From NCBI GenBank assembly GCA_043826085.1, contig JBDRQW010000012.1, forward strand, positions 1 to 32,972: a DNA stretch of 32,972 nt, given 5' to 3'. The stretch is from Candidatus Beckwithbacteria bacterium (lineage in GTDB: Bacteria; Patescibacteriota; Microgenomatia; UBA1400; CG1-02-47-37). A model generated the notes under the pieces. That model was not told the origin of the DNA. It was given only the letters and a program-made list of their open reading frames with translations, and searched no databases. The position numbers and the translations under genes are program-made. Positions 12,575 to 32,636 of the stretch are shown here, piece after piece; the stretch's first letter is position 1; each line of letters starts with the position of its first letter.

Positions 12575-12593
12575 ATAAAAAATTCACTTTTAC

Positions 12594-12617: not shown

Positions 12618-12621
12618 CCTC

Positions 12622-16136: not shown

Positions 16137-16173
16137 CACTCCCGGAGTGAAAGAAGTTCACACTCCGGGAGTG
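16137..16173. repeat. Family B inverted doublet (intergenic, tuf-rpsJ)
   Basis: CACTCCCGGAGTG-AAAGAAGTTCA-CACTCCGGGAGTG, identical to 32020-32056. Confidence 0.95.
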
Positions 16174-16197
16174 GTTAATAAAGAACCTTATCTTCTT

Positions 16198-16506
16198 ATG
16201 TCAAAAAGTAGAATTAGAATCAGATTAAAATCTTATGATCATCGGATCATAGATGAGTGTTGCCAAAAAATACTTGATACCGCTCTTTCAACAGGAGCTA
16301 AAGTCATTGGCCCCATTCCTTTACCAACCAGAAGAAAGCTGGTTTGTGTTACCACCAGCCCTCACGCAGATAAAGATGCCAGAGAGCACTTTCAGTTATT
16401 AACCCATAAAAGACTTGTAGATATCATTGATTCTACAGATAAAACTATCGATAGTTTAATGCACTTGGAATTGCCCGCCGGAGTTGGTATTGAAATTCGA
16501 ATGTAA
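16198..16506 (+). CDS. rpsJ: 30S ribosomal protein S10
   Basis: RIRIRLKSYDHR, GPIPLPT and LELPAGV. The start is ATG 16198. Confidence 0.98.
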   Translation: MSKSRIRIRLKSYDHRIIDECCQKILDTALSTGAKVIGPIPLPTRRKLVCVTTSPHADKDAREHFQLLTHKRLVDIIDSTDKTIDSLMHLELPAGVGIEIRM

Positions 16507-16512
16507 AGTTTC

Positions 16513-17253
16513 ATGATTAACACATTTTTTGCTACCAAACTAAAAACTGCCCAAGCCTTTGATGATAAAGGCAATCGTTTGGTAGTCACCAAAATAAAGT
16601 CTACCCCTTTAACTGTTACTCAAATAAAATCTGTTGAAAAAGATGGTTATTGGTCAATTCAATGTGCTTTTGGGAGAAAATCAAAAAAATCTTTATCAAA
16701 ACCACTTTTAGGACATCTTAAAGCATCGACCAAAGGCCGATCGTCCTCTGGACGAAAACTGAAAACCGCCCCTAAATTTATCAGGGAAATTAGAATTTTA
16801 AAAGAACCAACTTTAAAAGTAGGCGATCAAATCAAAGCTTCAGATGTTTTAAAAGCCGGTGACAAAGTAAAAGTTGTCGGTATTTCAAAAGGTAGAGGTT
16901 TTGCCGGAGTTATGAAGCGTTGGGGTTTCAAGGGTGGTCCAAGAACTCACGGCCAGTCAGATAGACCAAGATCTATAGGTTCTATTGGTCAAGGAACAGA
17001 CCCCGGTCGTGTTTGGAAAGGTAAAAAAATGCCGGGTAGATTTGGCACAGACAGAATTACTGTCAAAAACCTTCGAGTTTTAGAAGTTAATGACCAAGAT
17101 AATCTCATTAGTATCAAGGGTACGGTTCCAAGTTTTAATACTGCCCTTCTTGAAATCACCAAAATCAAAGAAGCTCCTACTTCCACTCCCGGAGTGAAAC
17201 CTGCCTGCGCAGGCAGGGAAGTTCCCACTCCGGGAGTGTCCAAAACAAAATAA
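16513..17253 (+). CDS. rplC: 50S ribosomal protein L3 with an internal and a C-terminal repeat-derived segment
   Basis: SKGRGFAGVMKRWGF and PGRVWKGKKMPG. Confidence 0.98.
   Translation: MINTFFATKLKTAQAFDDKGNRLVVTKIKSTPLTVTQIKSVEKDGYWSIQCAFGRKSKKSLSKPLLGHLKASTKGRSSSGRKLKTAPKFIREIRILKEPTLKVGDQIKASDVLKAGDKVKVVGISKGRGFAGVMKRWGFKGGPRTHGQSDRPRSIGSIGQGTDPGRVWKGKKMPGRFGTDRITVKNLRVLEVNDQDNLISIKGTVPSFNTALLEITKIKEAPTSTPGVKPACAGREVPTPGVSKTK
16726..16755. repeat. Family F double-hairpin 30-nt in-frame insertion in rplC (STKGRSSSGR)
   Basis: TCGACC-AAA-GGCCGA followed by TCGTCC-TCT-GGACGA; single copy in the window. Confidence 0.7.
17184..17238. repeat. Family B doublet with nested 18-nt family G palindrome, in-frame in the rplC tail
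   Basis: CACTCCCGGAGTG-AAA-[CCTGCCTGCGCAGGCAGG]-GAAGTTCC-CACTCCGGGAGTG, identical to 25137-25191. Confidence 0.96.
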
Positions 17254-17256
17254 CCT

Positions 17257-17883
17257 ATGCCATCAATAGATATTTACAACACCACTACCAAAAAGACTAC
17301 AAAAATTAATCTTAAAAAAGAGATTTTTGAGGCTAAAATTAACCAGCCTTTAATGGCTCAAGCCGTCAAAGTTTATTTATCTAATCAACGTCAAGCCCCT
17401 GCCAGAACTAAATCAAGAGGAGAAGTCAAAGTCACCAAACAAAAAGTTTGGCGTCAAAAAGGTACCGGCCGAGCCCGTCACGGTAGTAGAAATGCCCCTA
17501 TCTTTGTTGGCGGAGCCAAAGCCCACGGTCCCACCGGTGAGCAAAATTATAAACTAAATCTATCCAAGAAAATGAAACGCGCCAGTTTATTTAGTGCTCT
17601 TACCAAACAATTAAAAGACAAAAAAATCATGGCTATAACCGGCCTGGAAAAACTTACTCCTAAAACTAAAAAATTCAACTTAATATTTACCAAACTCACA
17701 AAAACCCCTAAAAAAATCCTTCTCGTCACCAATCTTTCGTCTATAAAAAGAGCCACTAATAACTTACCTTACATTAATTCAGCCACTGCCAAAAACTTAA
17801 CCACCTATCACACTTTAAACGCCAATAAAATCATCTTTACCAAAGAGTCTTTAAAAGCCCTAGAGGAGCATTATGTCTTTTGA
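17257..17883 (+). CDS. rplD: 50S ribosomal protein L4
   Basis: WRQKGTGRARHGS. Confidence 0.98.
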   Translation: MPSIDIYNTTTKKTTKINLKKEIFEAKINQPLMAQAVKVYLSNQRQAPARTKSRGEVKVTKQKVWRQKGTGRARHGSRNAPIFVGGAKAHGPTGEQNYKLNLSKKMKRASLFSALTKQLKDKKIMAITGLEKLTPKTKKFNLIFTKLTKTPKKILLVTNLSSIKRATNNLPYINSATAKNLTTYHTLNANKIIFTKESLKALEEHYVF

Positions 17884-18316
17884 TGTTATTTTAATAAAAC
17901 CATCCATCACTGAAAAATCCTTTAAATTAGCTCAAAGTGGTCAGTTTACCTTTTTTGTAAAAAAGTCTGCCAGTAAACATGCCATTGCTCACGCTATTGA
18001 AGAATTATTTAAAGTCAATGTTATCAAAGTCAGAACCGTCAAAAAAGCCGGTAAAGTTAAAAGGTCTGGCAAAAGCAAAATCGCCAAAAAGTATTCAGAT
18101 CAAAAAAAGGCGATTGTTACCTTAAAACCGGGTCAGATGATCGAGTACTTTAAATTACCGGAAGAAAAACGTAAAGCTCAGAGAACTCAGAAAAAATCAG
18201 TTTCCTCAGTGTTGCAGAAATCTCAGAGTTCCACTCCGGGAGTGTTAAAAAAACAGTCTAAACCTAGCCTTCTTGGTAAACTAAAAAAAATAACTAAGAG
18301 GACTCAAGATAAGTAA
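17873..18316 (+). CDS. rplW: 50S ribosomal protein L23 with an extension of about 50 aa
   Basis: [15 protein letters not shown] and operon position. Confidence 0.96.
18177..18244 (+). repeat. Degenerate ~9-nt CTCAG tandem array plus a single family B unit in the rplW tail
   Basis: (C)TCAG at 18177, 18186, 18196, 18205, 18213 (TGCAG) and 18222; CACTCCGGGAGTG at 18232-18244. Confidence 0.75.
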
Positions 18317-18318
18317 AT

Positions 18319-19143
18319 ATGGCAATTAGAACTTATAAACCAACCACCCCGGGCAGGCGTCATCGACGAGACATTATTTGTGATGAAATCACCGCCACCA
18401 AGCCGGAAAAAAGTCTTACTAAAGTAATTAACTACAAGGCCGGTAGAAACAGTACTGGTAAAATTTCTGTTAGGCATCAAGGTGGCCGTCACAAAAGACA
18501 ATATCGTATTATTGACTTTAAACGAGATAAAAGAGACATTCCGGCCAAGGTAGCTACTATTGAATATGATCCAAACAGAAGCGCTAATATTGCTTTACTT
18601 CACTATGTAGATGGCGCTAAAAGATATATTTTAGCGCCCAAGGGTTTAAAAATAAATCAACCTATCATGTCAGGCGAAAAAGCTTCGATTAAACCCGGTA
18701 ACGCTTGTCCTTTAAAAGTTATTCCGGTCGGTAGTTTAATCCATAATCTCGAGATCACTCCGGGCAAAGGTGGTCAGATGGTTAGGTCAGCCGGAACTGC
18801 CGCCACTCTTCAAGGTAAAGACAAAAAAGCTATTATCAAACTCCCTTCCGGAGAAGTCCGTTTAATTTCTTTAGCATGTTATGCTACAATCGGCGAGGTT
18901 GGAAACCAAGACGTTAAAAACATTAAGCTTGGCAAGGCTGGAAGAAAACGCCACATGGGAGTTAGACCCACTGTTCGTGGAGTAGCCCAACATCCGGCTT
19001 CTCACCCTCATGGTGGAGGTGAAGGTCGAAGCGGTATTGGAATGCCGTCTCCTTTAAGTCCTTGGGGTAAAAAGACTCTTGGTAAAAAGACCAGAAGAGC
19101 AAGAAAATACTCAACCAAATTTATTATTAAAAAAAGAAAGTAA
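18319..19143 (+). CDS. rplB: 50S ribosomal protein L2
   Basis: [18 protein letters not shown] and HPHGGGEG. Confidence 0.99.
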
Positions 19144-19148
19144 AAATC

Positions 19149-19186
19149 AAGGTTACGAACTCGAACTTCTTAAAGTTCGTAACCTT
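19149..19186. repeat. Family C hairpin repeat (intergenic, rplB-rpsS)
   Basis: AAGGTTACGAACT-CGAACTTCTTAA-AGTTCGTAACCTT. Confidence 0.95.
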
Positions 19187-19194
19187 AACAATTT

Positions 19195-19479
19195 ATGTCA
19201 AGATCAAGCAAAAAAGGACCATACGTAGACGAAAGATTGGTCAAAAAAATCGAAAAGATGAAGGCTGATGGCAAAAAAGAGGCCATCAAGACTTGGTCTA
19301 GAGCCAGTCAAATCTCTCCGGATTTTGTTGGGCATACTTTTCTTGTCCACAATGGCAATAAATTTTTAGAAGTTTTTGTAAACGAAGCCATGGTTGGCCA
19401 CCGTTTAGGAGAATTTTCTCCAACCCGTACCTTTAGGGGTCACGGAAAAATGGTCAAGAGAACCGTTACTAAGACTTAA
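19195..19479 (+). CDS. rpsS: 30S ribosomal protein S19
   Basis: [10 protein letters not shown] and [12 protein letters not shown]. Confidence 0.99.
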
Positions 19480-19481
19480 AT

Positions 19482-19940
19482 ATGATCAAAGCCGAAGCAA
19501 AATTTATCAGAACCAGCCCAAGAAAACTTAGGCTAGTGGCCGATCTGGTTAGAAACATGAGTTTAGCCGAAGCCATAAGTACCTTAACTCATCTTAGAAA
19601 AAGGTCGGTTACTCCACTTTTAAAAACTCTAAAGCAAGCCACCGCCAACGCTGTTAATAATCTAAATTTAAGCAAAGACTCTCTTCAAATTCAATCAATT
19701 GAAGTGAACGAGGGAGCCACTTACAAACGTTGGAATCCGGTTTCCCGCGGTCGGGCTCACTCAATTTTAAAAAGAACCAGTCATATAAAAGTACTTTTAA
19801 AGTCGAACAATTCCGAAAAAGGTGACACCTTGACAGGAGACGCGAGAGAATCTCGAGTCGGGACGGCGAAGCCGGAAGGTGTCACCTTATCGGAAAAGAC
19901 TTCCACTCCCACTCCGGGAGTGATAAAAGGGAAGAAATAA
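19482..19940 (+). CDS. rplV: 50S ribosomal protein L22 with a repeat-derived tail
   Basis: SPRKLRLVADL and KRTSHI. Confidence 0.98.
   Translation: MIKAEAKFIRTSPRKLRLVADLVRNMSLAEAISTLTHLRKRSVTPLLKTLKQATANAVNNLNLSKDSLQIQSIEVNEGATYKRWNPVSRGRAHSILKRTSHIKVLLKSNNSEKGDTLTGDARESRVGTAKPEGVTLSEKTSTPTPGVIKGKK
19819..19888. repeat. Family D 70-nt inverted doublet, in-frame in rplV
   Basis: AAGGTGACACCTT...AAGGTGTCACCTT with two internal hairpins; 69/70 identical to 32091-32160. Confidence 0.96.
19910..19922. repeat. Single family B unit in the rplV tail (TPGV)
   Basis: CACTCCGGGAGTG. Confidence 0.9.
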
Positions 19941-19941
19941 T

Positions 19942-20598
19942 ATGGGACAAAAAGTACATCCAAAATCATTTAGAATAGGCCCTCTTTACACTTGGTCCAG
20001 TAATTGGTTTGCCACGAAAAAAGACTATCAAAAGTTTTTACTGGAAGATATTCAATTAAGAAAGTTTTTGTTTAGTAAACTTGAACTTGCGGGTATTACC
20101 GAAGTAAAAATCGAGCGTTCCATCAATACTATAAAGTTTATTCTTCATGTCTCTAGACCGGGTGTGGTTATTGGTCGCGGTGGTTCAGGCATTGAAGAAC
20201 TAAAAAAGATTTTATTTAATAAACTAAAATTTAATAAACAAACAAACAAAGCTCCAAAATTCGAACTCGAGGTAGTTGAAGTCAAAAAGCCGGATTTATC
20301 AGCTAGGTTAATTGGTCTAAGAATTGCCGATCAAATGTTAAAACGTTACCCTCATAGAAGAGCTATTTCTCAGGCTTTAGAAAGAGCCATGACTGGCGGA
20401 GCTAAGGGTGTAAAAATTGTTTTAGCCGGTCGTATCAATGGAGCCGAAATTGGTAGAACTGAAAAGTATTCAAAAGGCAGTGTTCCTTTGAGTACTATAA
20501 GATCAGACATTGATTACTTTGAAAAACCGGCTTTAACTAAGTTTGGTTATGTTGGTATTAAAGTATGGGTATATAAAGGAGAATTAAATATAGTTTAA
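19942..20598 (+). CDS. rpsC: 30S ribosomal protein S3
   Basis: MGQKVHP, RPGVVIGRGG and GIKVWVYKGE. Confidence 0.99.
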   Translation: MGQKVHPKSFRIGPLYTWSSNWFATKKDYQKFLLEDIQLRKFLFSKLELAGITEVKIERSINTIKFILHVSRPGVVIGRGGSGIEELKKILFNKLKFNKQTNKAPKFELEVVEVKKPDLSARLIGLRIADQMLKRYPHRRAISQALERAMTGGAKGVKIVLAGRINGAEIGRTEKYSKGSVPLSTIRSDIDYFEKPALTKFGYVGIKVWVYKGELNIV

Positions 20599-20637
20599 GG
20601 TTCGGAACTAGAACTTCTTAAAGTTCACGAACCTTAA
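20595..20637. repeat. Family C variant overlapping the rpsC stop
   Basis: TTAAGGTTCGGAACT-AGAACTTCTTAA-AGTTCACGAACCTTAA. Confidence 0.9.
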
Positions 20638-20646
20638 TTTTACATT

Positions 20647-21054
20647 ATGTTACAACCAAAAAGAATGAAATACCGCAAGCATTTTCGAGGTTCTATGAAG
20701 GGCAATGCTAATGTTGGCTCAAAAGTCTCTTTTGGCGAGTATGGCTTAAAGGCACAAGGTAGAGGTTGGATGACCAATAGGCAAATTGAGGCCGCTAGAA
20801 AAACTATCAGCCATCATACTAAAAGAGCCGGAAAACTCTGGATTAGAGTTTTCCCGGATAAAACCTACACTAAAAAAGCCGCCGGTGTTCGCATGGGTGG
20901 TGGCAAAGGAGAAATCGAAGGCTATGTTTGTGTTATTAAACCCGGTCGTGTTATCTTTGAGTTGGCTGGAGTAGATGAAAGCATTGCTCGCGAATCATTT
21001 AGGTTAGCTACTCAAAAGTTACCTATGAAAACCAAATTTGTAACCAAAATCTGA
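20647..21054 (+). CDS. rplP: 50S ribosomal protein L16
   Basis: [11 protein letters not shown] and VRMGGGKG. Confidence 0.99.
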
Positions 21055-21055
21055 T

Positions 21056-21253
21056 ATGAATCAAAAAGATAAACAAGCTCTTCAAGCTAAAACTACCAAA
21101 GAATTAACAGCCGATCTTTTAAAGTTAAAAAAAGATTTGGTTGATCAAAAATTAAAATTAAAAACCGGTTCTTTAAAAGATACCTCGAGTCTTAAAAAAA
21201 CTCGTTATCAAATAAACATAAGGTTACGAACTTTAAGAAGTTCGAGTTCGTAA
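21056..21253 (+). CDS. rpmC: 50S ribosomal protein L29 (C-terminus encoded by a repeat)
   Basis: 65-aa basic helical protein between rplP and rpsQ. Confidence 0.9.
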   Translation: MNQKDKQALQAKTTKELTADLLKLKKDLVDQKLKLKTGSLKDTSSLKKTRYQINIRLRTLRSSSS

Positions 21254-21257
21254 CCTT
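21220..21257. repeat. Family C copy in reverse orientation encoding the last residues and stop of rpmC
   Basis: AAGGTTACGAACT-TTAAGAAGTTCG-AGTTCGTAACCTT, the exact reverse complement of 19149-19186. Confidence 0.95.
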
Positions 21258-21264
21258 CACCACT

Positions 21265-21495
21265 ATGAAAAAACAACTAACCGCCACTGTTATCAGTGCC
21301 AAAATGCAAAAAACAGTCAAAGTTCAAGTAATTCGAAAATGGGCTCACCCTGTCTACAAAAAAATCATCACCAAGAAAAAAAACTACTTAGTTCACAATG
21401 AAAAACTTGATTTAAAACCAGGTGATAAAGTTATTATTGAAGAAACTAAACCCATTAGCAAGAAAAAAACTTGGCAGATTGAGAGTAAGGTATGA
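21265..21495 (+). CDS. rpsQ: 30S ribosomal protein S17
   Basis: KMQKTV, HPVYKK and [11 protein letters not shown]. Confidence 0.97.
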
Positions 21496-21866
21496 TTCAA
21501 CTAAGATCAACCTTAAAAGTCGCTGATAATTCCGGAGGTAAAAAACTACGGGTTATCTTGGTCCATGGTGGTTCAAAAAAACGTTTTGGTCACATTGGAG
21601 ATATTGTTACTGCTTCTGTTATTCAAGCTCACCCTCACGCTCAAGTTAAATCAGGTGAAGTTGTCAAAGCAGTCATAGTTAGAACCAGAAAAGAAACTGC
21701 CAGAAAAGATGGTTCTTATGTTCGTTTTGATGACAATGCCGCTGTTATTTTAGAAAATGTTAAAAATAAAGAGCCAAAAGGCACCAGAATTTTTGGGCCG
21801 GTGGCTCGAGAAATTAAAGAGTTTGGCTACAACAAAATTGCCTCTCAGGCTCCAGAGGTTTTATGA
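21492..21866 (+). CDS. rplN: 50S ribosomal protein L14
   Basis: VADNSG and [11 protein letters not shown]. Confidence 0.99.
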
Positions 21867-22168
21867 AATTAAAAGTAAATGACACCATCAAAGTAACTCT
21901 TGGTAAAGATAGGGGTAAAACCGGCAAGATCGAAAAAATTTTTCCAAAGAAAAACATGGTTCAAGTTCCGGGTATCAATGTCTATAAAAAGCATCTCAAA
22001 GCTCAGGGCGAATCCAAACCCGGTGGTATTATTGATTTGGTTAAACCTATGTATGTTTCAAAAGTTGCCTTAATTTGCCCAAAGTGTCAAAAAATCACTA
22101 GGGTGGGTTATCAAGGTCAAGGTAAAAAGAAAGTTAGAATTTGTAAAAAATGCAAGGCTATTCTATGA
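21863..22168 (+). CDS. rplX: 50S ribosomal protein L24
   Basis: [11 protein letters not shown] motif; two CxxC motifs. Confidence 0.97.
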
Positions 22169-22707
22169 ACCGTCTAAAAGAAAAATACCAAAAAGAAATA
22201 ATCAAAACTCTAAAAAAAGAGTTTAAACTAACTAACGACTTAGCAGTTCCAAAAGTTACCAAAATAGTCATTAATGTTGGTTTAAAAGAAGGTGCCGGAG
22301 ACAAAGGTATAGTCAAAAAAGTTTCCGATTATATCAGTTTAATTGCCGGTCAAAAAGCTATTATTACCAGAGCCAGGGTAGCTGAAGCCGCCTTTAAAAC
22401 TAGAAAAGACGATCCCATTGGAGTTAAAGTTACTTTAAGAAACAAAAGAATGTATGAGTTTTTAGATAAATTTATTTCTATTGTTCTTCCAAGAGTTAGA
22501 GATTTCCAAGGAGTATCCAGAAAATCTTTCGACGGTCGTGGCAATTATTCAATCGGTTTAAATGATCAAACTGTTTTTCAAGAGGTAGATTATGATACAA
22601 TCGACACTGTTCGAGGATTACAAATAAATTTTGTTACTAATACTAATAACGACAAACTAGCTTTAAGATTATTAAAACTCTTAGGTATGCCTTATGTCAA
22701 AAGTTAA
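22165..22707 (+). CDS. rplE: 50S ribosomal protein L5
   Basis: MNRLKEKY and LPRVRDFQG; the ATG overlaps the rplX stop. Confidence 0.98.
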
Positions 22708-22879
22708 ATACTTTGAAAAACAAAAAAGAAAACCAAAGTTTCCTTCAAGACAAAAAAACCGTTGTCAACTTTGTGGTCGACCTAGAGCCTATATTAGACT
22801 CTTTGGTGTTTGTAGGTTATGTTTTAGAAAATTAGCCCAAAAAGGTGAATTACCCGGAGTTACCAAAGCCAGTTGGTAA
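22694..22879 (+). CDS. rpsZ: 30S ribosomal protein S14 type Z (zinc-binding)
   Basis: RCQLCGRPR...CRLCFR...PGVTKASW. Confidence 0.97.
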
Positions 22880-22885
22880 ATTAAT

Positions 22886-23278
22886 ATGCTATCAGATCCT
22901 ATTGCAGACTTGTTAACCAGAATTAGAAACGCCAAATTGGTTAATCATAAAAAGGTTTCTATTCCACATTCAATCTTAAAAGAAAATATTGTAAAAATTT
23001 TAAAAATCAAAGGCTATATTAAAGATTATATGACAGAAGGTAAAGTTCCTCAGAAAATCTTAAAAATCAATTTAAAGTATCGCCATAAAATCTCAGCCAT
23101 TAATCAAATAATAAGAATTTCCAAACCCGGAGTCAGAATTTACGCTAATTTCTCAGAACTTTCAAAATTAATGAGAGGCAGGGGCACTGTTATTCTTTCA
23201 ACTTCAAAAGGTGTTATGACTGCTCAAGATGCAAAAAAAAATAATTTAGGAGGAGAAGTTCTTTTAAAGGTAAGCTAA
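22886..23278 (+). CDS. rpsH: 30S ribosomal protein S8
   Basis: DPIADLLTRIRNA and STSKGVMT. Confidence 0.98.
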   Translation: MLSDPIADLLTRIRNAKLVNHKKVSIPHSILKENIVKILKIKGYIKDYMTEGKVPQKILKINLKYRHKISAINQIIRISKPGVRIYANFSELSKLMRGRGTVILSTSKGVMTAQDAKKNNLGGEVLLKVS

Positions 23279-23279
23279 T

Positions 23280-23828
23280 ATGTCTAGAATCGGCAAACAA
23301 CCAGTCATTATTCCAAAAGAAGTCACCCTGGAAATAAAAAATGATCTCATGACTGTTTCTTCAAAAGGAAATATTTTAACTCAAACTATTCCGGCAGGAA
23401 TTGAGGTTACCCTTAAAGATAATCTAGCTACTGTTACTGTAAAAAATTCTTCAAATCAAACCAAGGCTTATCATGGTTTGGTTAGAAGCTTGCTTTTTAA
23501 TATGGTTGAGGGGGTTACCAAAGGTTACTCTAAAACTTTAGTTTTGGAAGGCACCGGTTTTAGAGTCGAAGCCAAAGACAAAGGCATTGAGCTATCACTT
23601 GGTTTTTCTCACCCGGTTATTTATCAAGCTCCGGAATCCATTAAAATAGAAGTTAAAGATAATAAAACCATTATAATATCAGGAGCAGACAAACAACTGG
23701 TTGGTCAAGTGGCCGCTAAAATAAGAGAATATAAAAAACCGGATTCTTATAAAGGCAAAGGAGTTAGATATCAAGGCGAAGTTGTTAAATTAAAACCGGG
23801 TAAATCCGCAAAAGCGGCTGAAGCTTAA
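23280..23828 (+). CDS. rplF: 50S ribosomal protein L6
   Basis: [15 protein letters not shown] and YKGKGVRY. Confidence 0.98.
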
Positions 23829-23830
23829 AT

Positions 23831-24148: not shown

Positions 24149-24154
24149 TATAAT

Positions 24155-24661: not shown

Positions 24662-25200
24662 CTTTAAATACACTTACAAAAACAAAAGATAAATCAAAAA
24701 AAAGAGTTGGTCGCGGTTATGGTTCAGGTAAAGGTGGTCACACTTCCGGTCGTGGTGCCAAAGGCCAAAAAGCCAGAAGTAAGGTGCCACTTTATTTTGA
24801 AGGTACCCCAATGAGAAAAAGTTTAATAAGGAGAATTCCTATGTTACGTGGAAAATTAAAAAACAAACCGGTTGGTATCAAACCCATAATTATAAATCTA
24901 AAACACTTGGTGACTTTTAAAAAAGATCAAACAGTATCTGTCGAAACTTTAATCAAAAATAAAGTATTGCCGGCAAATGCCAAGGGTTTACCAGTCAAAA
25001 TTTTGGGAGATGGTGACCTTAAGGTAGCTTTAACAGTTACTTTACCTACTTCAAAATCCGCCGCCAAAAAAATTAAAAAAGCTGGCGGTAAAATAATATC
25101 TCCCACTCCCGGAGTGAAGAAAAAACCAAAAACTCCCACTCCCGGAGTGAAACCTGCCTGCGCAGGCAGGGAAGTTCCCACTCCGGGAGTGATTAAATGA
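24658..25200 (+). CDS. rplO: 50S ribosomal protein L15 with a repeat-derived tail
   Basis: [11 protein letters not shown] and VKILGDG. Confidence 0.98.
25104..25191. repeat. Family B single unit (25104-25116) plus doublet with nested 18-nt palindrome (25137-25191) in the rplO tail
   Basis: Encodes TPGV...[18 protein letters not shown]. Confidence 0.96.
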
Positions 25201-26471
25201 ATCTCCAACCAATTTTAAATATATTTAAAATTAAAGACTTAAGAAAAAAGATTTTAATTACCCTTTTTATCTTTGTTATTTTTCGTTTTATCGCCCACAT
25301 TCCGGTTCCCGGAGTTGACGTTAATGCTCTAAAACAACTTTTTGGCGGAAATCAACTTTTAGGGTTGCTTGATATTTTTTCCGGTGGAACTTTAGCCAAC
25401 TTTTCGGTTATGGCTTTAGGTTTAGGACCCTACATCAACGCCTCAATTGTTTTCAATCTACTTACTATTATCTTTCCAAAATTAGAAGAAATCAGTAAAG
25501 AGGGCGAGTATGGTCGAGAAAAAATCAATCAATGGACTAGAATGTTATCTATTCCCTTGGCCGCCATTCAAAGCATCGGCATGGTCGCTTTACTTAAAAA
25601 TCAACAAATCATCAACTTATCAAACCCCTTATTTAGTCTTAGTACGGTAATTACTATGGTTGCCGGCACAGTTTTACTAATGTGGTTGGGTGAACTTCTT
25701 ACCGAGTATGGCATTGGCAATGGCATTTCTTTGCTCATTTTTGCCGGTATTGTTGGTCGTTTGCCCGTCTCTTTACTTCAAACCTCTTCAATCAGTCAAA
25801 CCCTAAACTTTGTTAGTATTATTACTTTTGCTATTTTAGGCTTGTTGGTAATTTCAGGCATTATTTATGTCAATGAAGCCACTCGTCAAATAAAAGTTCG
25901 TTATGCCAGAAGAGTCAGTGGTCGGACTCAACCCGGCCAATCAACCCACCTACCATTAAGAGTCAATCAAGCCGGAGTTATTCCTATCATTTTTGCTGTT
26001 TCCCTGGTTTTAATGCCATCAGTTTTGGGTAATTTTTTAACCGGAGTCAGTAATCCAAAAATAGTTGCTTTTGCCACTAATTTAGTTAATATTTTTGATC
26101 CCAACAAAGTTCCTTACCATGTTATCTATTTACTTCTGGTAATTGCCTTTACTTATTTTTATACTGCGGTTACTTTTAATCCGGATAAAATTTCAGAAGA
26201 TATTAAAAAATATGGTGGTTTTATTCCCGGTATCAGGCCCGGTAAACCTACCGCTGATTATCTGTCTTATGTTTTAAACAGAATTACTTTGGCTGGTGCT
26301 TTATTTTTAGGTCTAATTGCCATTCTCCCTTCCATTGCCAGTTATTTAACCGGTATCACCACTCTCACTATTGGCGGTACCGGTATTTTAATCGTTGTTT
26401 CTGTTATTCTGGAAACTAGTAAAAACTTTGAATCTCAATTAATTATGCGAAACTACGACAGTTTCCTATAA
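25197..26471 (+). CDS. secY: Preprotein translocase SecY
   Basis: Multi-TM protein; [20 protein letters not shown] and FIPGIRPG. Confidence 0.99.
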
Positions 26472-26472
26472 A

Positions 26473-27048
26473 ATGTTTATAATCTTTTACGGGCCGGAAG
26501 GCTCAGGCAAATCAACTCAAGCTAAAATGTTAGCCGAAAAACTCGGTGTTCCTTATTTAGGTTCAGGGGATTTAGTTAGAAAATACGCTGCCGAGGATAA
26601 GGGTATTATGGGCGACGCTTGCCGAGATGTTTTTAAAACCGGCCACTACTTGGCTGACTCGGAAATATTTGTTTTATGGAAAGATCGTTTAAAGGAAGAC
26701 GATGTTCAAGATGGTTTTGTTATCGATGGTTTTCCCAGAAACCACACTCAAGCTTTATTTTTAGCTGACAAACTGGATAAATACAAAAAAACCGTTAACT
26801 TTGTTTTTTATCTTAATATTTCTCAACCGGAATCTATTAAACGTTTGCTTAATAGAGGTCGAAAAAGCCCGGATGGTTCGCTTCATGATTCAGAAGAAAA
26901 AATAAAATCAAGACTAAATATCTATCAAAAACAAGAAGCCGACGTCTTAAAGTTTTATCAAGAAAACAAGTTACTAAAAACCATCAACGGTGAACAGTCC
27001 ATAGAAGCCATTCACCAAGATGTTCTAAAGGTGGTTAATAATGGCTAA
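26473..27048 (+). CDS. adk: Adenylate kinase (short LID)
   Basis: GPEGSGKSTQA, DGFPR and position after secY. Confidence 0.9.
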   Translation: MFIIFYGPEGSGKSTQAKMLAEKLGVPYLGSGDLVRKYAAEDKGIMGDACRDVFKTGHYLADSEIFVLWKDRLKEDDVQDGFVIDGFPRNHTQALFLADKLDKYKKTVNFVFYLNISQPESIKRLLNRGRKSPDGSLHDSEEKIKSRLNIYQKQEADVLKFYQENKLLKTINGEQSIEAIHQDVLKVVNNG

Positions 27049-27613
27049 TAAAAAAATCGTCATTGCCATAGTTGGTATGGCCGGTAGTGGCAAGTCAATT
27101 AGTTGTGCTCACTTTAAGAGTCTTGGCTACCCGATTTTAAGGTTTGGCGATCAAACAGACATTGGTTTAAAAGAATTAGGTCTTTCTTTAATTGAAGCTA
27201 ATGAGAAAAAATATCGGGAAGATTTGAGAAAAAATTATGGTATGAAAGCTTACGCCGTAAAAATAGAGCCACGCATTATAAAGGCCTTTAAAAAATCAGA
27301 CATAGTTTTTTTAGATGGGCTTTATTCTTGGGAAGAATATACTTATTTAAAAAGCAAGTTTAGTAATTTTTTTCTTATTTGTATTTATGCTCGTCCGGCT
27401 GTTCGTTATCAACGCTTAGTTAAACGTTTAATTCGTCCTTTAACAAAAAAAGATGCCCATCAACGTGATATTGCCGAATTAGTCAATCTTCACAAAGGCG
27501 GACCAATTGCCATGGCTGATTTTTTAATTAAAAACAACAAACAAACCAAAAAGCTCTTCGACAAACTCACCGACACCCTCACCCTAATTAAAAATCACGC
27601 TCCAGGAGCGTGA
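27041..27613 (+). CDS. P-loop nucleotide kinase, archaeal-like dephospho-CoA kinase/UPF0200-type
   Basis: VGMAGSGKS P-loop, DGLYSWEE, RD..E and IAMADFLIKN motifs. Confidence 0.7.
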   Translation: MANKKIVIAIVGMAGSGKSISCAHFKSLGYPILRFGDQTDIGLKELGLSLIEANEKKYREDLRKNYGMKAYAVKIEPRIIKAFKKSDIVFLDGLYSWEEYTYLKSKFSNFFLICIYARPAVRYQRLVKRLIRPLTKKDAHQRDIAELVNLHKGGPIAMADFLIKNNKQTKKLFDKLTDTLTLIKNHAPGA

Positions 27614-27614
27614 T
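27594..27614. repeat. Family B variant palindrome supplying the kinase stop and the putative map GTG start
   Basis: Perfect ATCACGCTCC-A-GGAGCGTGAT. Confidence 0.85.
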
Positions 27615-28362
27615 AGAGGTAACTATGAATAAAATCAATTTAATGGCAGAAGGTGGAGCTAAGTTACACCAAATAAAAGAAGATTTAAAAAAAATTTCCA
27701 AACCTGGAGTCAGGTTAAGCGAAATTGAGGCTAAAGCCCAAACTTTAATTAAAAAAGCCGGTGGTAAACCTAGTTTTGCTATGGTCCCGGGCTACTCTTG
27801 GGCCACCTGTATTAATCTTAATGAAGGTTTGGTTCATGGCATTCCCGATGATAAACAATTAAAACTGGGCGACCTTGTTTCTATAGATGTTGGCATTTTC
27901 TATAAAGGTTTTCACACAGATTCGTGCATTAGTTTTATTGTTGGCAATCTAACTGATTATCCCAAAAAGCAAGAATTTTTAGAAACCGGTCAACAAGCCT
28001 TAGATTTAGCTATAAAACAAGCTAAAATAGGCAACCATATTGGTCATATTTCAAAAATAATACAAGAGATTATCGAAGCCAAAGGCTATAATGTTTCTAG
28101 AAATTTTACCGGTCACGGTATCAGTACTGTTCTTCATGAACAACCAATGATTCCTTGTTTTCTAGAAGGGGAAATCAAAAACACTCCTGCTATTACCAAA
28201 AATCAAACTTTGGCTATCGAAGTTATTTATATGGCTGGCAACTCAGATACCATCACTGATAAAAAAGACAACTGGACTGTAGTCACCAAAGATAATCAAA
28301 TAGCCGGCATAGTCGAGCACACTATTGCAGTGACAGGGTCTGACCCTGTCATCCTTACTTAA
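27610..28362 (+). CDS. map: Methionine aminopeptidase type I
   Basis: VHGIP, DVG...HTD, GHGI...LHEQP, AIE and EHTIAVT motifs. The start may be ATG 27625. Confidence 0.96.
   Translation: MIEVTMNKINLMAEGGAKLHQIKEDLKKISKPGVRLSEIEAKAQTLIKKAGGKPSFAMVPGYSWATCINLNEGLVHGIPDDKQLKLGDLVSIDVGIFYKGFHTDSCISFIVGNLTDYPKKQEFLETGQQALDLAIKQAKIGNHIGHISKIIQEIIEAKGYNVSRNFTGHGISTVLHEQPMIPCFLEGEIKNTPAITKNQTLAIEVIYMAGNSDTITDKKDNWTVVTKDNQIAGIVEHTIAVTGSDPVILT
28331..28351. repeat. Family E palindrome in-frame in the map C-terminus (TGSDPV)
   Basis: Perfect TGACAGGGTC-T-GACCCTGTCA. Confidence 0.85.
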
Positions 28363-28367
28363 AGATA

Positions 28368-28396
28368 TAGAAAAATTATTAATTATCTGATATAAT
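28368..28396 (+). promoter_or_regulatory. Putative infA promoter (very short leader)
   Basis: TAGAAA-17 bp-TATAAT with extended TG, ending 10 nt before the ATG. Confidence 0.6.
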
Positions 28397-28406
28397 ACTT
28401 ACAACA

Positions 28407-28628
28407 ATGAGTCAGAAAGACATCATAGAAATAGAAGGTGTAGTCGTTGAGAATCTTCCCAATGCCACTTTTAAAGTAAAAGTTGACAACTCAGACAAAA
28501 CCATTTTTTGTCATTTAGGTGGTAAGATGCGAATGTATAGGATTCGCGTTCTTCCGGGAGATAAAGTTAAGGTAGAACAATCTCCTTACGATGAAACCAA
28601 AGGTCGAATCGTTTACAGATTAAAATAA
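28407..28628 (+). CDS. infA: Translation initiation factor IF-1
   Basis: LPNATFKV and [16 protein letters not shown]. Confidence 0.98.
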
Positions 28629-28636
28629 TTAACAAC

Positions 28637-28677
28637 CTCAAAACCTGCTAAAAACTACTTGGTTTTGAGATTTTTTT
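28637..28677 (+). promoter_or_regulatory. Hairpin plus T tract directly before rpmJ
   Basis: CTCAAAACC...GGTTTTGAG then ATTTTTTT-ATG. Confidence 0.45.
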
Positions 28678-28791
28678 ATGAAAGTACAAGCGTCAGTTAA
28701 AAAAAGATGCATCAAATGCAAAATAGTCCGTCGTAAGGGGAAGGTCTATGTTATATGTGAAAACCCTCGCCATAAACAGCGTCAAGGATAA
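28678..28791 (+). CDS. rpmJ: 50S ribosomal protein L36 (37 aa; below the ORF-track cutoff)
   Basis: [37 protein letters not shown]. Confidence 0.98.
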
Positions 28792-28793
28792 TT

Positions 28794-29189
28794 ATGCCAA
28801 GAATTTCCGGTATTGATTTACCACAAAACAAAAAAACAGGAATAGCCTTAACTTACATTTATGGTGTTGGCCGAGACAATGCCAAAGACATCTTAAAGTT
28901 AGCTAACGTCGACCCGGATAAAAGAGCTAAAGATTTAACCTCAGATGAAGTGGTTAGAATCCAAAAATCACTGGAAACTTTTCCCATAGAAGGTTCTCTA
29001 AGAAAAATCATTACTGAAAATATTAAAAGGTTAAGGCAAATTGGCACTTACAGAGGTATGCGTCATGCCGCCAAGTTACCGGCTCGAGGTCAAAGAACCA
29101 GACACAATGCCAGAACCAGGCGTGGTCGAAGAATGACAGTAGGATCCTTAAAAAAAGAGGATGCTGCTAAAATTGATACAAAGAAATAA
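28794..29189 (+). CDS. rpsM: 30S ribosomal protein S13
   Basis: ALTYIYGVG and RGQRTRHNARTR. Confidence 0.99.
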   Translation: MPRISGIDLPQNKKTGIALTYIYGVGRDNAKDILKLANVDPDKRAKDLTSDEVVRIQKSLETFPIEGSLRKIITENIKRLRQIGTYRGMRHAAKLPARGQRTRHNARTRRGRRMTVGSLKKEDAAKIDTKK

Positions 29190-29194
29190 CATAA

Positions 29195-29230
29195 AGGTTA
29201 CGAACTCGAACTTCTTAAAGTTCGTAACCT
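29195..29230. repeat. Family C hairpin repeat (intergenic, rpsM-rpsK)
   Basis: AGGTTACGAACT-CGAACTTCTTAA-AGTTCGTAACCT, identical to the core of 19149-19186. Confidence 0.95.
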
Positions 29231-29238
29231 GAACATTT

Positions 29239-29619
29239 ATGAAAAATAACAAACCCACCACCTCAACCACTCAAATAACTTCCGGTAAAATTTTTATTAC
29301 CGCTACATTTAATAATACTTTGATTTCTATTACAGATATCAAAGGCAATGTTATTTGTTGGGGTTCAACCGGAGCTTCAGGTTTTAAAGGCTCAAGAAAG
29401 TCAACCCCTTATGCGGCTACTACCGCTATTGAAACAGCCATTAATAAAGCCAAAGACCGTGGTCTATCTACAGTTCAGATTTTTATCAAAGGACCGGGCT
29501 CTGGTCGTGATGCCATCCTTGGCGTTGTTAGATCAAGTGGATTAAAAGTTACTAAAATATCAGACATCACTCCCATTCCTCACAATGGTTGTCGTCCTAA
29601 AAAAAGGCGAAGAGGTTAA
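29239..29619 (+). CDS. rpsK: 30S ribosomal protein S11
   Basis: [18 protein letters not shown] and PIPHNGCRP. Confidence 0.99.
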
Positions 29620-29624
29620 ATAAT

Positions 29625-30239
29625 ATGGCAAAAATTTCAACCAAAAGAGGTAAGTTAGTCAGAAAATTTCAAGAAAATATTTTTGGAAATCCAAAATTTG
29701 ATAAACTTCTTGCCAAAAAACCTCATCCACCGGGGTTTCATGGCAAAAAATTAAGAAGAAGACTTTCAGACTATGGTTCTCAATTAAAAGAAAAACAAAA
29801 ATTAAAAACCGCCTACGGTGTTTTAGAAAGACAATTTAGAAGATATTATAAGGTGGCCAGAAAAACTCAAACCGCTACCGGAGAAAAATTATTGCAAATT
29901 TTAGAGTCACGTTTAGATAATTTGGTTTACAGAGCTGGTTTTGCTTCTACCAGACCGGCTGCTCGTCAGCTGGTTTCTCACGGGCATATAGAGATTGATG
30001 GTAAAAAAGTTAACATTCCTTCATACTTAGTTAAAATCGGTCAAGTTATTAGTTTAGACAAAAAGGGTCAAAAAATTCCTGACATAGTTGCTCTTCTTGC
30101 TAAAGCCAAAAAAGATTTAATTATTCCAAAGTGGCTAACCAGAAAAGCAATTGCCGCTAAACTTGAAAGATTGCCAGAACGCGATGAAATCGATATTAAT
30201 ATTCAAGAGCAACTCATAGTTGAGTTCTACTCAAGATAA
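29625..30239 (+). CDS. rpsD: 30S ribosomal protein S4
   Basis: QLKEKQK, LESRLDN, ARQLVSHGH and IVEFYSR. Confidence 0.99.
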   Translation: MAKISTKRGKLVRKFQENIFGNPKFDKLLAKKPHPPGFHGKKLRRRLSDYGSQLKEKQKLKTAYGVLERQFRRYYKVARKTQTATGEKLLQILESRLDNLVYRAGFASTRPAARQLVSHGHIEIDGKKVNIPSYLVKIGQVISLDKKGQKIPDIVALLAKAKKDLIIPKWLTRKAIAAKLERLPERDEIDINIQEQLIVEFYSR

Positions 30240-30252
30240 AGGAGATTATCTT

Positions 30253-31170
30253 ATGATCAAACCAAACTTTAAAACCACTGTCATCGCCGAGACAGACGAC
30301 TTCGGCAAGTTTGAACTAACCCCTCTGGAAAAAGGTTACGGCCAAACCATTGGCAATGCCTTGCGCCGTGTTTTATTATCAAGCTTATCAGGGGCCGCCA
30401 TCGCCAAAGTCTCAATTGAAGGAGTTAATCATCAATTTACTACTTTATCAGGAGTCAAAGAAGATATTGTCGAGTTACTTTTAAATTTAAAACAAGTTAG
30501 GTTAAGCTACAAAGGTGAAAAGCCGGTTGAGTTAAGTTTAAACGCTGTTGGTCCGGGAGAAATTAAAGCCGGAGATATTAAACTTCCCGCTAATGTAAAA
30601 ATTGCCAATAAAGACTTGGTTTTAGCCACTCTTTCAGACAAAAACTCAAAGTTAGATGCTAAACTCTTAGTCGAAACCGGTCATGGTTACTTACCGGCCA
30701 GAAATCGTCAGGCCAGTAAACTCGGCCAAATGATTTTAGATGCTTCATTTTCCCCGGTTACCAGAGTTAACTATCAAGTAGAAGTTACTCGCGTTGGTAG
30801 AAAAATCGACTTGGATAAACTGGTCATGGAAATCTATACAGACGGTACTATCAAGCCATCAAAAGCATTAGAGCAAGCCGCTTCTATTCTAATTTCTTCA
30901 TTTACTCAAATCGTTGACCCGACTTTTGAGGTTAAGTTAGAAGAAGATATAGAAGAAGAAGATGACAATGAATCTCTAAGATTATCAGTCGAGGAATTGG
31001 ATTTACCGACCCGTATTGCTAATGCCTTACGCAATGGCGGTTACTCAACTGTTAAAGAACTGTCCAAAGCCACTCGTTCAGACATCACCAAAGTCAAAAA
31101 CTTGGGAGGTAAGTCAATTGATATTATCATTGATAAACTGAAAGAAAAAGACGTTATCATTAAAAAGTAA
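30253..31170 (+). CDS. rpoA: RNA polymerase alpha subunit
   Basis: PLEKGYGQTIGNALRRVLL and alpha-CTD; AAGGAG RBS before ATG 30253. Confidence 0.99.
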   Translation: MIKPNFKTTVIAETDDFGKFELTPLEKGYGQTIGNALRRVLLSSLSGAAIAKVSIEGVNHQFTTLSGVKEDIVELLLNLKQVRLSYKGEKPVELSLNAVGPGEIKAGDIKLPANVKIANKDLVLATLSDKNSKLDAKLLVETGHGYLPARNRQASKLGQMILDASFSPVTRVNYQVEVTRVGRKIDLDKLVMEIYTDGTIKPSKALEQAASILISSFTQIVDPTFEVKLEEDIEEEDDNESLRLSVEELDLPTRIANALRNGGYSTVKELSKATRSDITKVKNLGGKSIDIIIDKLKEKDVIIKK

Positions 31171-31172
31171 TT

Positions 31173-31598
31173 ATGAAACATAGAATGAAAGGTAAAAAAC
31201 TTGGTAGAAATATCAAGCAAAGAAAAGCTTTGTTTAAAAGTTTGATTACTAACTTAATTTTTAAGCAACAGATCAAAACAACTGAGGCCAAAGCCAAAGC
31301 CATTAAGCCATTAATCGATAAATTAATGACCAAAGCTAAGCAGGGCTCTCTTTCCTATCGTCGTCAAGTTATTGGTTTTCTATCTCACCAAAAAGCCGCC
31401 AATCACCTCTTTGATGTTGTTGCTCCTCAAACTAAAAAAAGAACCTCTGGTTTTACTCGAGTAGTTCGATTAGGCCAAAGAAAGGGTGATAATACCATGA
31501 TGGCCAAAATCGAATTTGTTGACAAGAAGTCCGTTGGTTCCGAACTTTCAGCGACCCGCAACGAAGTGAAGGGTAGTTCGGAACCTTCTAAAAAATAA
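31173..31598 (+). CDS. rplQ: 50S ribosomal protein L17 with a repeat-derived tail
   Basis: IKTTEAKAK, GFTRV and RKGD. Confidence 0.98.
   Translation: MKHRMKGKKLGRNIKQRKALFKSLITNLIFKQQIKTTEAKAKAIKPLIDKLMTKAKQGSLSYRRQVIGFLSHQKAANHLFDVVAPQTKKRTSGFTRVVRLGQRKGDNTMMAKIEFVDKKSVGSELSATRNEVKGSSEPSKK
31536..31585. repeat. Family C-like arms enclosing a different cargo, in-frame in the rplQ tail
   Basis: GGTTCCGAACT-TTCAGCGACCCGCAACGAAGTGAAGGGT-AGTTCGGAACC. Confidence 0.85.
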
Positions 31599-31600
31599 CT

Positions 31601-32212
31601 ATGAACACCTACGCCACCAAACAATCAGATATAAAAAGAGCTTGGCATCTTATTGATGTTAAAGACAAAGTATTGGGTAGAATATCTACAGTTATTGCCC
31701 AAAAGTTAATTGGCAAAACAAAACCTTATTTTACGTCTCACCTTGACTGTGGCGACTACGTGGTAGTTATCAACAGTAATTTAGTCAAAGTCACCGGTAG
31801 AAAAAAAACCGATAAAATCTACTCCCACCATACCAATTACCCCAGTGGTTTAAGACAAATTCCTTTTGATCGTCAATTGAAAAAAGACTCCAGAAGAATC
31901 ATCGTCAGAGCCGTCTCCAACATGTTACCAAAAAATAAGTTAAGAGCTCCAAGGCTAAAAAGATTAAAAGTATTCAAAGCAGACGATCATATTTATCAAG
32001 ATAAACTTTCAAAGGCAGTCACTCCCGGAGTGAAAGAAGTTCACACTCCGGGAGTGATTAGTTCCAAGCCTTCTCTTAAAAAAGTGAAAAAAGGTGACAC
32101 CTTAACAGGAGACGCGAGAGAATCTCGAGTCGGGACGGCGAAGCCGGAAGGTGTCACCTTGAAGAAACCCAAAAAAGTATTAAAACAAACTAAAACCAAG
32201 AAAGAAAATTAA
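31601..32212 (+). CDS. rplM: 50S ribosomal protein L13 with a repeat-derived tail of about 65 aa
   Basis: WHLID, DCGDYVVVIN and MLPKNKL. Confidence 0.98.
   Translation: MNTYATKQSDIKRAWHLIDVKDKVLGRISTVIAQKLIGKTKPYFTSHLDCGDYVVVINSNLVKVTGRKKTDKIYSHHTNYPSGLRQIPFDRQLKKDSRRIIVRAVSNMLPKNKLRAPRLKRLKVFKADDHIYQDKLSKAVTPGVKEVHTPGVISSKPSLKKVKKGDTLTGDARESRVGTAKPEGVTLKKPKKVLKQTKTKKEN
32020..32056. repeat. Family B doublet in-frame in rplM (TPGVKEVHTPGV)
   Basis: Identical to 16137-16173. Confidence 0.96.
32091..32160. repeat. Family D doublet in-frame in rplM
   Basis: 69/70 identical to 19819-19888. Confidence 0.96.
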
Positions 32213-32612: not shown

Positions 32613-32636
32613 CCTTCAGGGTTTATCCTTGCAGGC
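32612..32636. repeat. Degenerate family A-like palindrome abutting the rpsI stop
   Basis: ACCTTCAGGGTTTATCCTTGCAGGC; the first 10 nt are identical to family A. Confidence 0.6.

Follow-up and report, generated by a model that had tools for sequence, protein, structure and literature searches.

In the present study, we analysed a 32,972-bp contig (C12; hereafter the window, which is the whole stretch of DNA examined) from the genome (G000) of a groundwater Candidatus Beckwithbacteria bacterium, a genome of the Patescibacteria type comprising 1.05 Mb in 129 contigs with 36.5% GC. From 16.1 kb onward, the plus strand of the window carries the S10-spc-alpha ribosomal gene cluster, in which short palindromic repeats occupy spacers and, in larger number, lie in frame within ribosomal proteins and other genes. 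Pfam matches in the window include the ribosomal proteins L3, L23, L22, L29, L15, L17 and L13, Peptidase_M24 (MetAP), an AAA_18 kinase-like protein and adenylate kinase; S10, L4, L2, S19, S3, L16 and other window genes were named by gene order and alignment to relatives instead of by a Pfam scan. Genes across the genome were called with a home-made model that takes the longest starts and yields 1188 genes covering 92.5% of the DNA.

Palindromic repeats in the ribosomal gene cluster

Self-comparison of the contig against the genome, supplemented by a scan for lone 13-mers, located 18 palindromic repeat sites of at least 8 families between positions 16,137 and 32,635, namely 15 repeated intervals (from 16136) and 3 lone 13-mers (18232, 19910 and 25104). 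A sequence-only reading of this DNA had reported at least 6 families at about 15 sites, mostly in frame within L3, L23, L22, L29, L15, L17, L13, MetAP and a kinase, and the present catalogue bears this out. Thirteen of the 18 sites fall inside uninterrupted open reading frames (ORFs): the tail and an internal loop of L3, the tail of L23, the tail of L22 (twice), the end of L29, the tail of L15 (twice), the end of the kinase gene, the C-terminus of MetAP, the tail of L17 and the tail of L13 (twice). The other 5 are intergenic. All 13 coding copies keep the frame and none is preceded by a stop codon. In each ribosomal protein, the Pfam domain is over before the terminal repeat (domain end/protein length in amino acids: L3, 197/246; L23, 91/147; L22, 107/152; L15, 146/180; L17, 116/141; L13, 130/203).

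The main family in the ribosomal proteins is built on a 13-mer that mostly reads TPGV (the repeats in this section are on the plus strand unless stated otherwise). It occurs as lone 13-mers in the tails of L23 (18232..18244), L22 (19910..19922) and L15 (25104..25116) and as a REPIN-like doublet (REP, repetitive extragenic palindrome; REPIN, a replicating unit of 2 inverted REPs) in which 2 inverted 13-mers are separated by an 11-nt spacer. One doublet (16137..16173) lies between the EF-Tu-like gene and S10, and is intergenic because the S10 orthologues begin at the ATG at 16198; it is identical over 37 nt to the doublet in the L13 tail (32020..32056). A composite form, in which CCTGCCTGCGCAGGCAGG is nested in the spacer, makes up the C-terminal tail of L3 (17184..17238) and, as the same 55-mer, that of L15 (25137..25191). 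The surrounding 60-nt stretches (17179-17238 and 25132-25191) are 98% identical and yield one shared 18-residue peptide in the two proteins. In a similar manner, a 73-nt element with inverted ends AAGGTGWCACCTT is present in the tails of L22 (19816..19888) and L13 (32088..32160) at 99% identity, encoding KGDTLTGDARESRVGTAKPEGVTL in ORFs with different Pfam domains. Thus, the claim that unrelated proteins share identical peptides is upheld for both pairs.

The remaining sites belong to other families. A 38-39-nt hairpin (AAGGTTACGAAC..GTTCGTAACCTT) in the L2/S19 spacer (19149..19187) is the exact reverse complement of the one at the end of L29 (21219..21257, minus strand) and recurs between S13 and S11 (29194..29232), so that the presence of identical DNA in intergenic positions, also noted in the sequence-only reading, holds for this family and for the TPGV doublet alike; a diverged member of the hairpin family lies between S3 and L16 (20597..20626). 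The AAA_18 kinase-like gene ends in the REP ATCACGCTCCAGGAGCGTGAT (27593..27614), which supplies the last residues HAPGA and the TGA stop, and the C-terminus of MetAP (VTGSDPV) is encoded by TGACAGGGTCTGACCCTGTCA (28329..28351). The tail of L17 (GSELSATRNEVKGSSEPS) derives from a 56-nt element with inverted ends GGTTCCGAAC/GTTCGGAACC (31534..31589), and a further, intergenic REP (32611..32635, unstranded) directly follows the S9 stop. An internal 27-nt insertion in L3 (16730..16758), absent from the list of the earlier reading, adds 9 residues within STKGRSSSGR at approximately residues 72-81.

To place these sites in context, we compared the ribosomal operons of 8 relatives, i.e., 2 congeners (G001 and G002), 5 genomes of the same family (G003, G004, G007, G009 and G011) and one from another family of the order (G023). 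The protein cores align end to end, whereas the tails do not. L13 has 203 residues here but 141 in G001, 142 in G003 and 139-144 in G007, G009, G011 and G023; the doublet at its end is missing from G001, G003 and more distant relatives, with the same site filled in G002. L22 has 152 residues against 121 in G001, where the 73-nt element is missing from L22; the L15 of G001 contains the element that here sits in L22 and L13. The internal L3 site is a clean 9-residue (27-nt) gap in G001, G002 and G003. The end of the L17 gene is empty in G001, carries a TPGV doublet in G002 and has the GGTTCCGAAC-ended element here. In L29, the hairpin follows the native C-terminus in G001, while here it takes the place of the last ten or so native codons (RLRTLRSSSS) and provides the TAA stop. 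The alignment of orthologues thus reveals sites that are empty, or occupied by another element at the same gene end, in genomes of the same genus and family. MetAP follows a different pattern: a perfect 21-nt palindrome encodes VTGSDPV here and in G001, where G002 and G003 have VTKNGPV, and because the length is the same, the palindrome is a replacement and not an insertion. This swap looks more like conversion than insertion.

Collectively, the near-identity of the copies (98-100%) and the empty sites in congeners are in line with the proposal that the spread was recent. The proposal that DNA is the mobile unit is likewise sustained, given that one element is read in several frames and orientations among genes and also occurs between them. 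The 73-nt element has 8 genomic matches, 7 of them inside ORFs with three different readings, and the genomic copies of the L17-tail element occur in several frames and orientations; since one element gives unrelated peptides, the matching is at the DNA level.

Dispersal across the genome and the RAYT-like transposases

Families were built from the hairpins of a strict scan that required stems of 8 bp or longer and 3 or more G/C per arm; it superseded a clustering of repeats at k=11 that was too noisy. Such GC-containing hairpins number 357 in the genome, compared with 49 in one block-shuffled genome. Twenty families have at least 4 copies (4-30 each) and amount to 199 copies, the 13-mer family included. 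A genome-wide count by coding status assigns 117 copies wholly to ORFs, 25 to gene ends that they straddle and 57 to intergenic DNA. Spacers are thereby over-represented (29% of copies versus approximately 7.5% of the DNA being non-coding), as is the last tenth of genes (28/117). Nevertheless, 69 of these 117 copies sit deep inside genes, with over 30 codons to either end, in hosts that, among the ten scanned, include TsaD, CysRS, PheRS-beta, RecJ, MurT, two P-type ATPase pieces and radical-SAM proteins. The 456-residue TsaD gene (C8:4861-6231) contains two composite TPGV doublets and an L17-tail-type element, with a hairpin at its end, and its Pfam match is split into three stretches. Separately, a 1380-residue ORF (C1:205-4350) that begins with MerR/HTH domains and contains an intein splicing domain (residues 826-924) carries four palindromes of different families.

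The phenomenon is genome-wide and not ribosome-specific. With 15 strict copies where 5.3 would be expected per gene (P = 4e-4), the ribosomal region is enriched, but the excess is entirely due to the TPGV family: once this family is removed, 4 copies remain where 4.7 would be expected, and the idea of a general hot spot was rejected. The TPGV 13-mer has 30 copies in the genome, with 11 in the window, 8 on contig C61 and 5 on C8. Across 30 relatives, there are 32 copies in G011, 8 in G029, 7 in G002, 1-3 in seven genomes and none in twenty, and a reversed control pattern of the 13-mer has no match in the 31 genomes. This distribution is patchy: G011, which belongs to another genus, has about as many copies as the genome studied here, whereas the closest congener, G001, has only 2.

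Of the 25 intragenic 13-mers, 23 read TPGV although all three frames are open, as do 7 of the 8 lone 13-mers counted by hand. Other families are confined to one or two of the three frames (6/6, 6/7, and 8 + 6 of 14). This pattern fits spread at the DNA level followed by a filter at the protein level. From the open frames and their skewed use, we infer that the repeats are most probably translated, giving essential proteins tails and loops of recent origin. An AlphaFold2 model of L13 from an 8-sequence alignment was uninformative on the tail, with a mean pLDDT (predicted local distance difference test) of 39.9 even for the conserved domain.

Folding of 8 elements as single-stranded DNA, with 200 shuffles each, gave a hairpin in every case (z from -2.3 to -7.1, the weakest being the internal L3 insertion); no shuffle was as good for six of them, and 2/200 and 6/200 were for the other two. 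The elements range from 13-nt hairpins through doublets of 37-55 nt, which fold as one long hairpin, to elements of 56-73 nt with palindromic ends. The 37-nt and 55-nt doublets each fold into a single hairpin of -15.1 (z -6.5 for the copy at 16137) and -22.5 kcal/mol, respectively, with 0/200 shuffles as good. The plain doublet (6 copies) and the composite form with the nested second palindrome (5 copies) are each near-identical on different contigs, which fits multiplication of both as whole units, as for a REPIN-like replicative unit.

Besides these repeats, the genome encodes a rich set of RAYT-like (REP-associated tyrosine transposase) genes: 18 score above the Pfam cut-off, none contains stops and they are 31-64% identical to the copy in the window. 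The latter (10886..11560, minus strand) encodes an HUH-Y1 transposase of 224 residues from its ATG (Pfam Y1_Tnp, 8.5e-11, above the cut-off) and lies between the S7-like and EF-G-like genes. All 18 paralogues have the invariant HUH and Tyr motifs (C-x-M-x-N-H-x-H and Y-I-H, the latter being YIHxNP in the alignment). In the 4 paralogues of 18 that were tested, NCBIfam NF047646 (REP_Tyr_transpos) is the sole match, at 25.7-46 bits (40.8 for the window copy) against a cut-off of 80, and a profile of the RAYT alignment has weak matches only in the PDB, to an IS200/IS605-type transposase (E 0.008). Sixteen of the 18 genes are flanked by their own GC-containing palindrome, which lies approximately 30-90 nt upstream of the gene, at or directly behind its stop codon, or in both places; this is the layout of REPtrons. 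RAYT matches number 16 in G002 and 11 in G001, 4-9 in most genomes of the same family, and 0-4, at most 6, in most other families of the order. The closest relatives among named records come from metagenome-assembled genomes labelled Patescibacteria, Microgenomates, Daviesbacteria, Woesebacteria, Levybacteria, Saccharibacteria and others, some of which look mis-assigned.

In the window, the palindrome of family A (ACCTTCAGGGAGWCTCCCTGAAGGT) is found on both sides of the RAYT gene, at its 3' flank (10853..10877) and 5' flank (11574..11598), as well as twice in frame within it, encoding APSGRLPEG (11075..11099) and, with one mismatch, LQGDSLKV (11379..11403; repeats here and below are unstranded). 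Such an arrangement is recurrent: in 10 of the 18 loci, the palindrome that flanks the gene recurs in frame within it, compared with 2 of 306 mismatched pairs. In the alignment, the internal copies fall at two positions, of which a gene may have either or both filled: immediately ahead of the HUH strand (site 1, as for LQGDSLKV) and immediately behind YIHxNP (site 2, as for APSGRLPEG). In named Patescibacteria records, 21 of 78 RAYT loci show an internal cognate palindrome, against 24 of 6006 mismatched pairs; 7 of the 21 are at site 1, 9 at site 2, and 5 are probably upstream copies swallowed by an over-long ORF. Paralogues with no recognisable palindrome have a segment of similar length at the same positions, and thus the site is old, its sequence tracking the family. 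Given that the internal copies match their own flanks perfectly despite the 31-64% identity of the paralogues, they may be actively homogenised or selected. One possible reason is self-recognition, in which the transposase would regulate its own gene or be loaded onto it in cis; we found no description of internal cognate palindromes in the portions of published RAYT/REP work examined. The VTGSDPV peptide of MetAP also occurs at site 2 of the RAYT on contig C15.

Elsewhere in the window, the space that separates the S7-like gene from the EF-G-like gene in the str operon holds, besides the opposite-strand RAYT gene, a 309-residue ORF that has no Pfam match (11645-12571), and an intergenic REP of the CCTACAAGGATCATCCCTGTAGG type (12592..12618), a family different from A, has 13 other matches in the genome. 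Further upstream, a sortase-domain protein (351-1148) and a YceG-like protein (1763-2716), both recognised by Pfam, precede large polymerase-like genes.

Origin of the repeats and competing explanations

We consider it probable (roughly 0.78) that the repeats are genuine dispersed REP/REPIN-like elements and that the tails of the ribosomal proteins are by-products of the spread of selfish DNA filtered by selection rather than the work of a dedicated ribosome-modifying system. In a gene-dense genome (approximately 92% coding) that holds at least 20 families alongside 18 RAYT-like paralogues, new copies would land in or beside genes, because there is almost no intergenic space. The survivors would be stop-free, frame-keeping copies in tolerant places, mostly last codons and surface loops, where the ribosome would read through them as extra peptide. 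The RAYTs presumably move, in trans, the families found in ribosomal proteins, and the tails may persist in the mature proteins as near-neutral additions. Spread combined with a selective filter would then make the tails by-products, with no dedicated system behind them, and a ribosome-specific or adaptive role is not supported.

Several observations weigh against parts of this interpretation. The families in ribosomal proteins have no RAYT next to them: every copy of the TPGV, CCTGCCTGCGCAGGCAGG, 73-nt, 38-nt GGTTACGAAC hairpin, L17-tail and kinase-end families is more than 400 nt away from the nearest of the 18 RAYTs, and no cognate RAYT of the TPGV family was seen among these 18 genes, at the listed match positions in G002 (by eye) or at the two RAYT genes found in G011. 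Inspection of the DNA around 11 doublets, 11 hairpins and 3 copies of the 73-nt element revealed neither a target-site duplication nor a shared target motif. The same-length swap in MetAP is unexplained by simple insertion. The L13 doublet, at the same site here and in G002, is identical at 35 of 37 positions, whereas the L13 core DNA is 76% and its third positions 56% identical; the doublet has therefore been inserted twice, homogenised by gene conversion, or constrained. Some intragenic copies classed as N-terminal really lie upstream of the true start, owing to the longest-start gene model. Finally, the contigs of an RNA run (X10) all fall in unique stretches of the operon and span none of the repeats, so that they are uninformative on expression of the tails, and the internal sequence of the long copies at each site rests on the original assembly, as none of the contigs listed below bridges them, which is expected of k-mer assemblies.

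The alternative that survives best, although we regard it as rather unlikely, is that the hairpins are kept for a function in RNA or DNA at the gene boundaries of long operons, such as protection of mRNA 3' ends, processing, translation coupling or attenuation, with the peptides being a side effect; it overlaps in part with the interpretation above. The enrichment in spacers (57/199) and in the last tenth of genes would be expected under such a role, and so would the location of every copy in the window but one at a gene end or in a spacer, the provision of stop codons by two elements and the conservation of the L13 doublet far above that of flanking third codon positions. REPs 3' of ORFs have been reported as plausibly transcribed RNA elements in a passage of PMC3733652. 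Yet 69 of the 117 intragenic copies lie deep inside genes, close relatives run the same operon with empty sites, and the same gene end holds different families in different species.

It is also conceivable, but unlikely in our judgement, that the families in ribosomal proteins spread independently of RAYTs, by gene conversion, microhomology-mediated recombination or hairpin-induced template switching. The absence of an adjacent RAYT, both here and beside the two RAYT matches of G011 with its 32 TPGV copies, speaks for this possibility, as do the clustering of the TPGV copies on three contigs (24 of 30), the lack of target duplications and the MetAP palindrome, which swaps 21 native nucleotides for 21 others, 11 of them shared by eye. 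Transposition by HUH-Y1 enzymes of the IS200/IS605 type leaves no target duplication either; the absence of duplications is thus compatible with HUH-Y1 chemistry and proves nothing. On the other side, the doublet and the composite form multiplied as whole units on different contigs, and RAYTs are unusually numerous in this genome and its relatives. The claim that a RAYT-driven system operates in a bacterium of the candidate phyla radiation (CPR) can be followed part of the way: 18 RAYT-like genes are present, one of them in the window, and their nearest relatives are found in Patescibacteria/Microgenomates, but the families in ribosomal proteins adjoin no RAYT, so that RAYT-driven movement is inferred for them. 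Cognate RAYTs were identified for family A (in the window), for the MetAP type (on C15) and for AAGGTT-CGT-AACCTT (on C44), and among the palindromes within genes of the ribosomal region only that of MetAP has one. RAYTs are abundant and plausible drivers, while their link to the families in ribosomal proteins is weak.

That the inserts are missing from the mature proteins, because the ribosome hops over them (as happens at mitochondrial byp elements and in T4 gene 60) or the mRNA is cut or terminated at the hairpin, appears very improbable. The presence of strong hairpins within coding sequence speaks for it, but none of the 13 coding copies in the window shifts the frame or interrupts it with a stop, the L3 insert measures exactly 27 nt, and the genes downstream in the operon must still be transcribed. 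Bypassed elements break the frame or contain stops and are skipped; the frames here are kept and stop-free, and their use is strongly skewed, which is unexpected for skipped sequence and argues against skipping of the inserts.

An artefact of assembly or binning, with repeats mis-joined into the operon, can be set aside almost entirely: the assembly is indeed split into 129 contigs, and Logan contigs, the form in which the runs were examined, break wherever a 31-mer repeats and hence at every long repeat, but related genomes hold the same kinds of elements in the same operon, the frames are open through every copy, and contigs of other studies reach the junctions from both sides and bridge the short copies. 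The stretch is present in sequencing runs of four studies. Contigs of the three other than the original (X2, X3 and X4) extend from unique sequence into each long repeat, on both sides, at the predicted junctions, and fully bridge the short copies at 18232 (X2, X3 and X4), 19910 (X2 and X3), 20597, 27593 (X2 and X3), 28329 and 31534 (X3), with no contig contradicting any junction. With three other studies yielding contigs that run up to or across these junctions, the repeats are not an assembly artefact.

Returning to REP/REPIN-like spread with RAYTs as presumed movers, we tentatively suggest a broader possibility, namely that a RAYT/REPIN partnership has adapted to life with no intergenic space to colonise, in which "codable", stop-free palindromes with a benign frame (TPGV) would colonise coding DNA, including the most conserved proteins, and in which the cognate palindromes inside the RAYT genes would point to self-recognition. 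If true, essential proteins would keep receiving new peptides in this way. Ribosomal proteins serve as the yardstick of conservation, and phylogenies of uncultivated bacteria are built on them; here, seven of them have gained or swapped tails of 5-60 residues among species of one genus, probably through selfish DNA. Mobile hairpins may thus remodel essential proteins quickly in the smallest bacterial genomes, and the series of filled and empty sites represents a natural test of what the ribosome tolerates. The RAYT/REPIN system would be extended to Patescibacteria, with unusually many paralogues, and the palindromes inside RAYT genes offer a testable handle on how RAYT and REP families are matched. 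Caution is also warranted, in that the repeats affect gene calling, marker-gene alignments and assembly contiguity in such lineages.

Relation to known palindromic elements

Mobile GC-rich hairpins within essential coding genes are known from mitochondria, where byp elements and GC-cluster hairpins disrupt the reading frame and the ribosome passes over them. Unlike these, the elements described here preserve the frame and show frame selection. Inverted ends reminiscent of miniature inverted-repeat transposable elements are present, but no target-site duplication was seen around the copies inspected. Like REPs, the elements fold into hairpins and are dispersed genome-wide; unlike REPs in the strict sense, they are not confined to extragenic DNA (117/199 wholly in ORFs).

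In the REPIN-RAYT systems of Pseudomonas and Escherichia, as described in PMC5581495 (see also PMC8049555), a pair of inverted REPs folds into one long hairpin and multiplies together, and each family is linked to a RAYT gene with its own REPs on the flanks. Members of a RAYT group average 1.3-1.8 per replicon and are "typically one copy per genome" according to a passage of PMC5581495. The present genome differs in having 18 RAYTs in 1.05 Mb, all those tested scoring below the NCBIfam equivalog cut-off, and in having most copies in coding sequence as opposed to extragenic REPINs, while its copy numbers (4-30) are modest next to the hundreds in Pseudomonas. In the literature searched, we found no report linking RAYTs or REPs with Patescibacteria, CPR or Microgenomates.

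Intragenic REPs are already on record. The premise of the sequence-only reading that RAYT-associated REPs are normally extragenic is therefore valid as a tendency and not as a strict rule: in the passages available from Di Nocera et al. 2013 (PMC3733652), REPs are mostly intergenic, and GTAG/CGTC REPs also occur as singles or dimers wholly within ORFs, where they add 20-30 residues, in some cases up to 82, with some REP ends supplying stops and with family-specific REPtrons. According to the same passages, intragenic REPs are most numerous in Opitutus terrae and R. conorii and are concentrated in repair and replication genes. Here, in contrast, 117 of 199 copies are intragenic and the hosts include seven ribosomal proteins. 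The main family in these proteins also differs in lacking a GTAG or CGTC head; in the places examined, GTAG..CTAC extends the palindrome at the 3' flank of the window RAYT, and the TPGV 13-mer has no such head.

The Rickettsia palindromic elements (RPEs) are palindromic repeats with many copies in frame within unrelated, apparently functional genes, the frame being kept (passages of PMC10969869, PMC3767692 and PMC3733652), and those passages hold no mention of RPEs in ribosomal proteins. The elements described here resemble RPEs in being in-frame palindromes within functional ORFs of a small genome. They are set apart by size and host, and not by sequence comparison: they measure 13-73 nt, compared with approximately 100-150 bp for RPEs, and occur in a Patescibacteria-type host instead of Rickettsiales, as about 20 families alongside 18 RAYT-like genes. 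Thus, the setting is closest to that of the Rickettsia RPEs and the intragenic REPs, and what is new is the lineage, the number of RAYTs and families within approximately 1 Mb, the majority of copies being in coding sequence, the seven ribosomal proteins among the hosts, and the small size of the elements.

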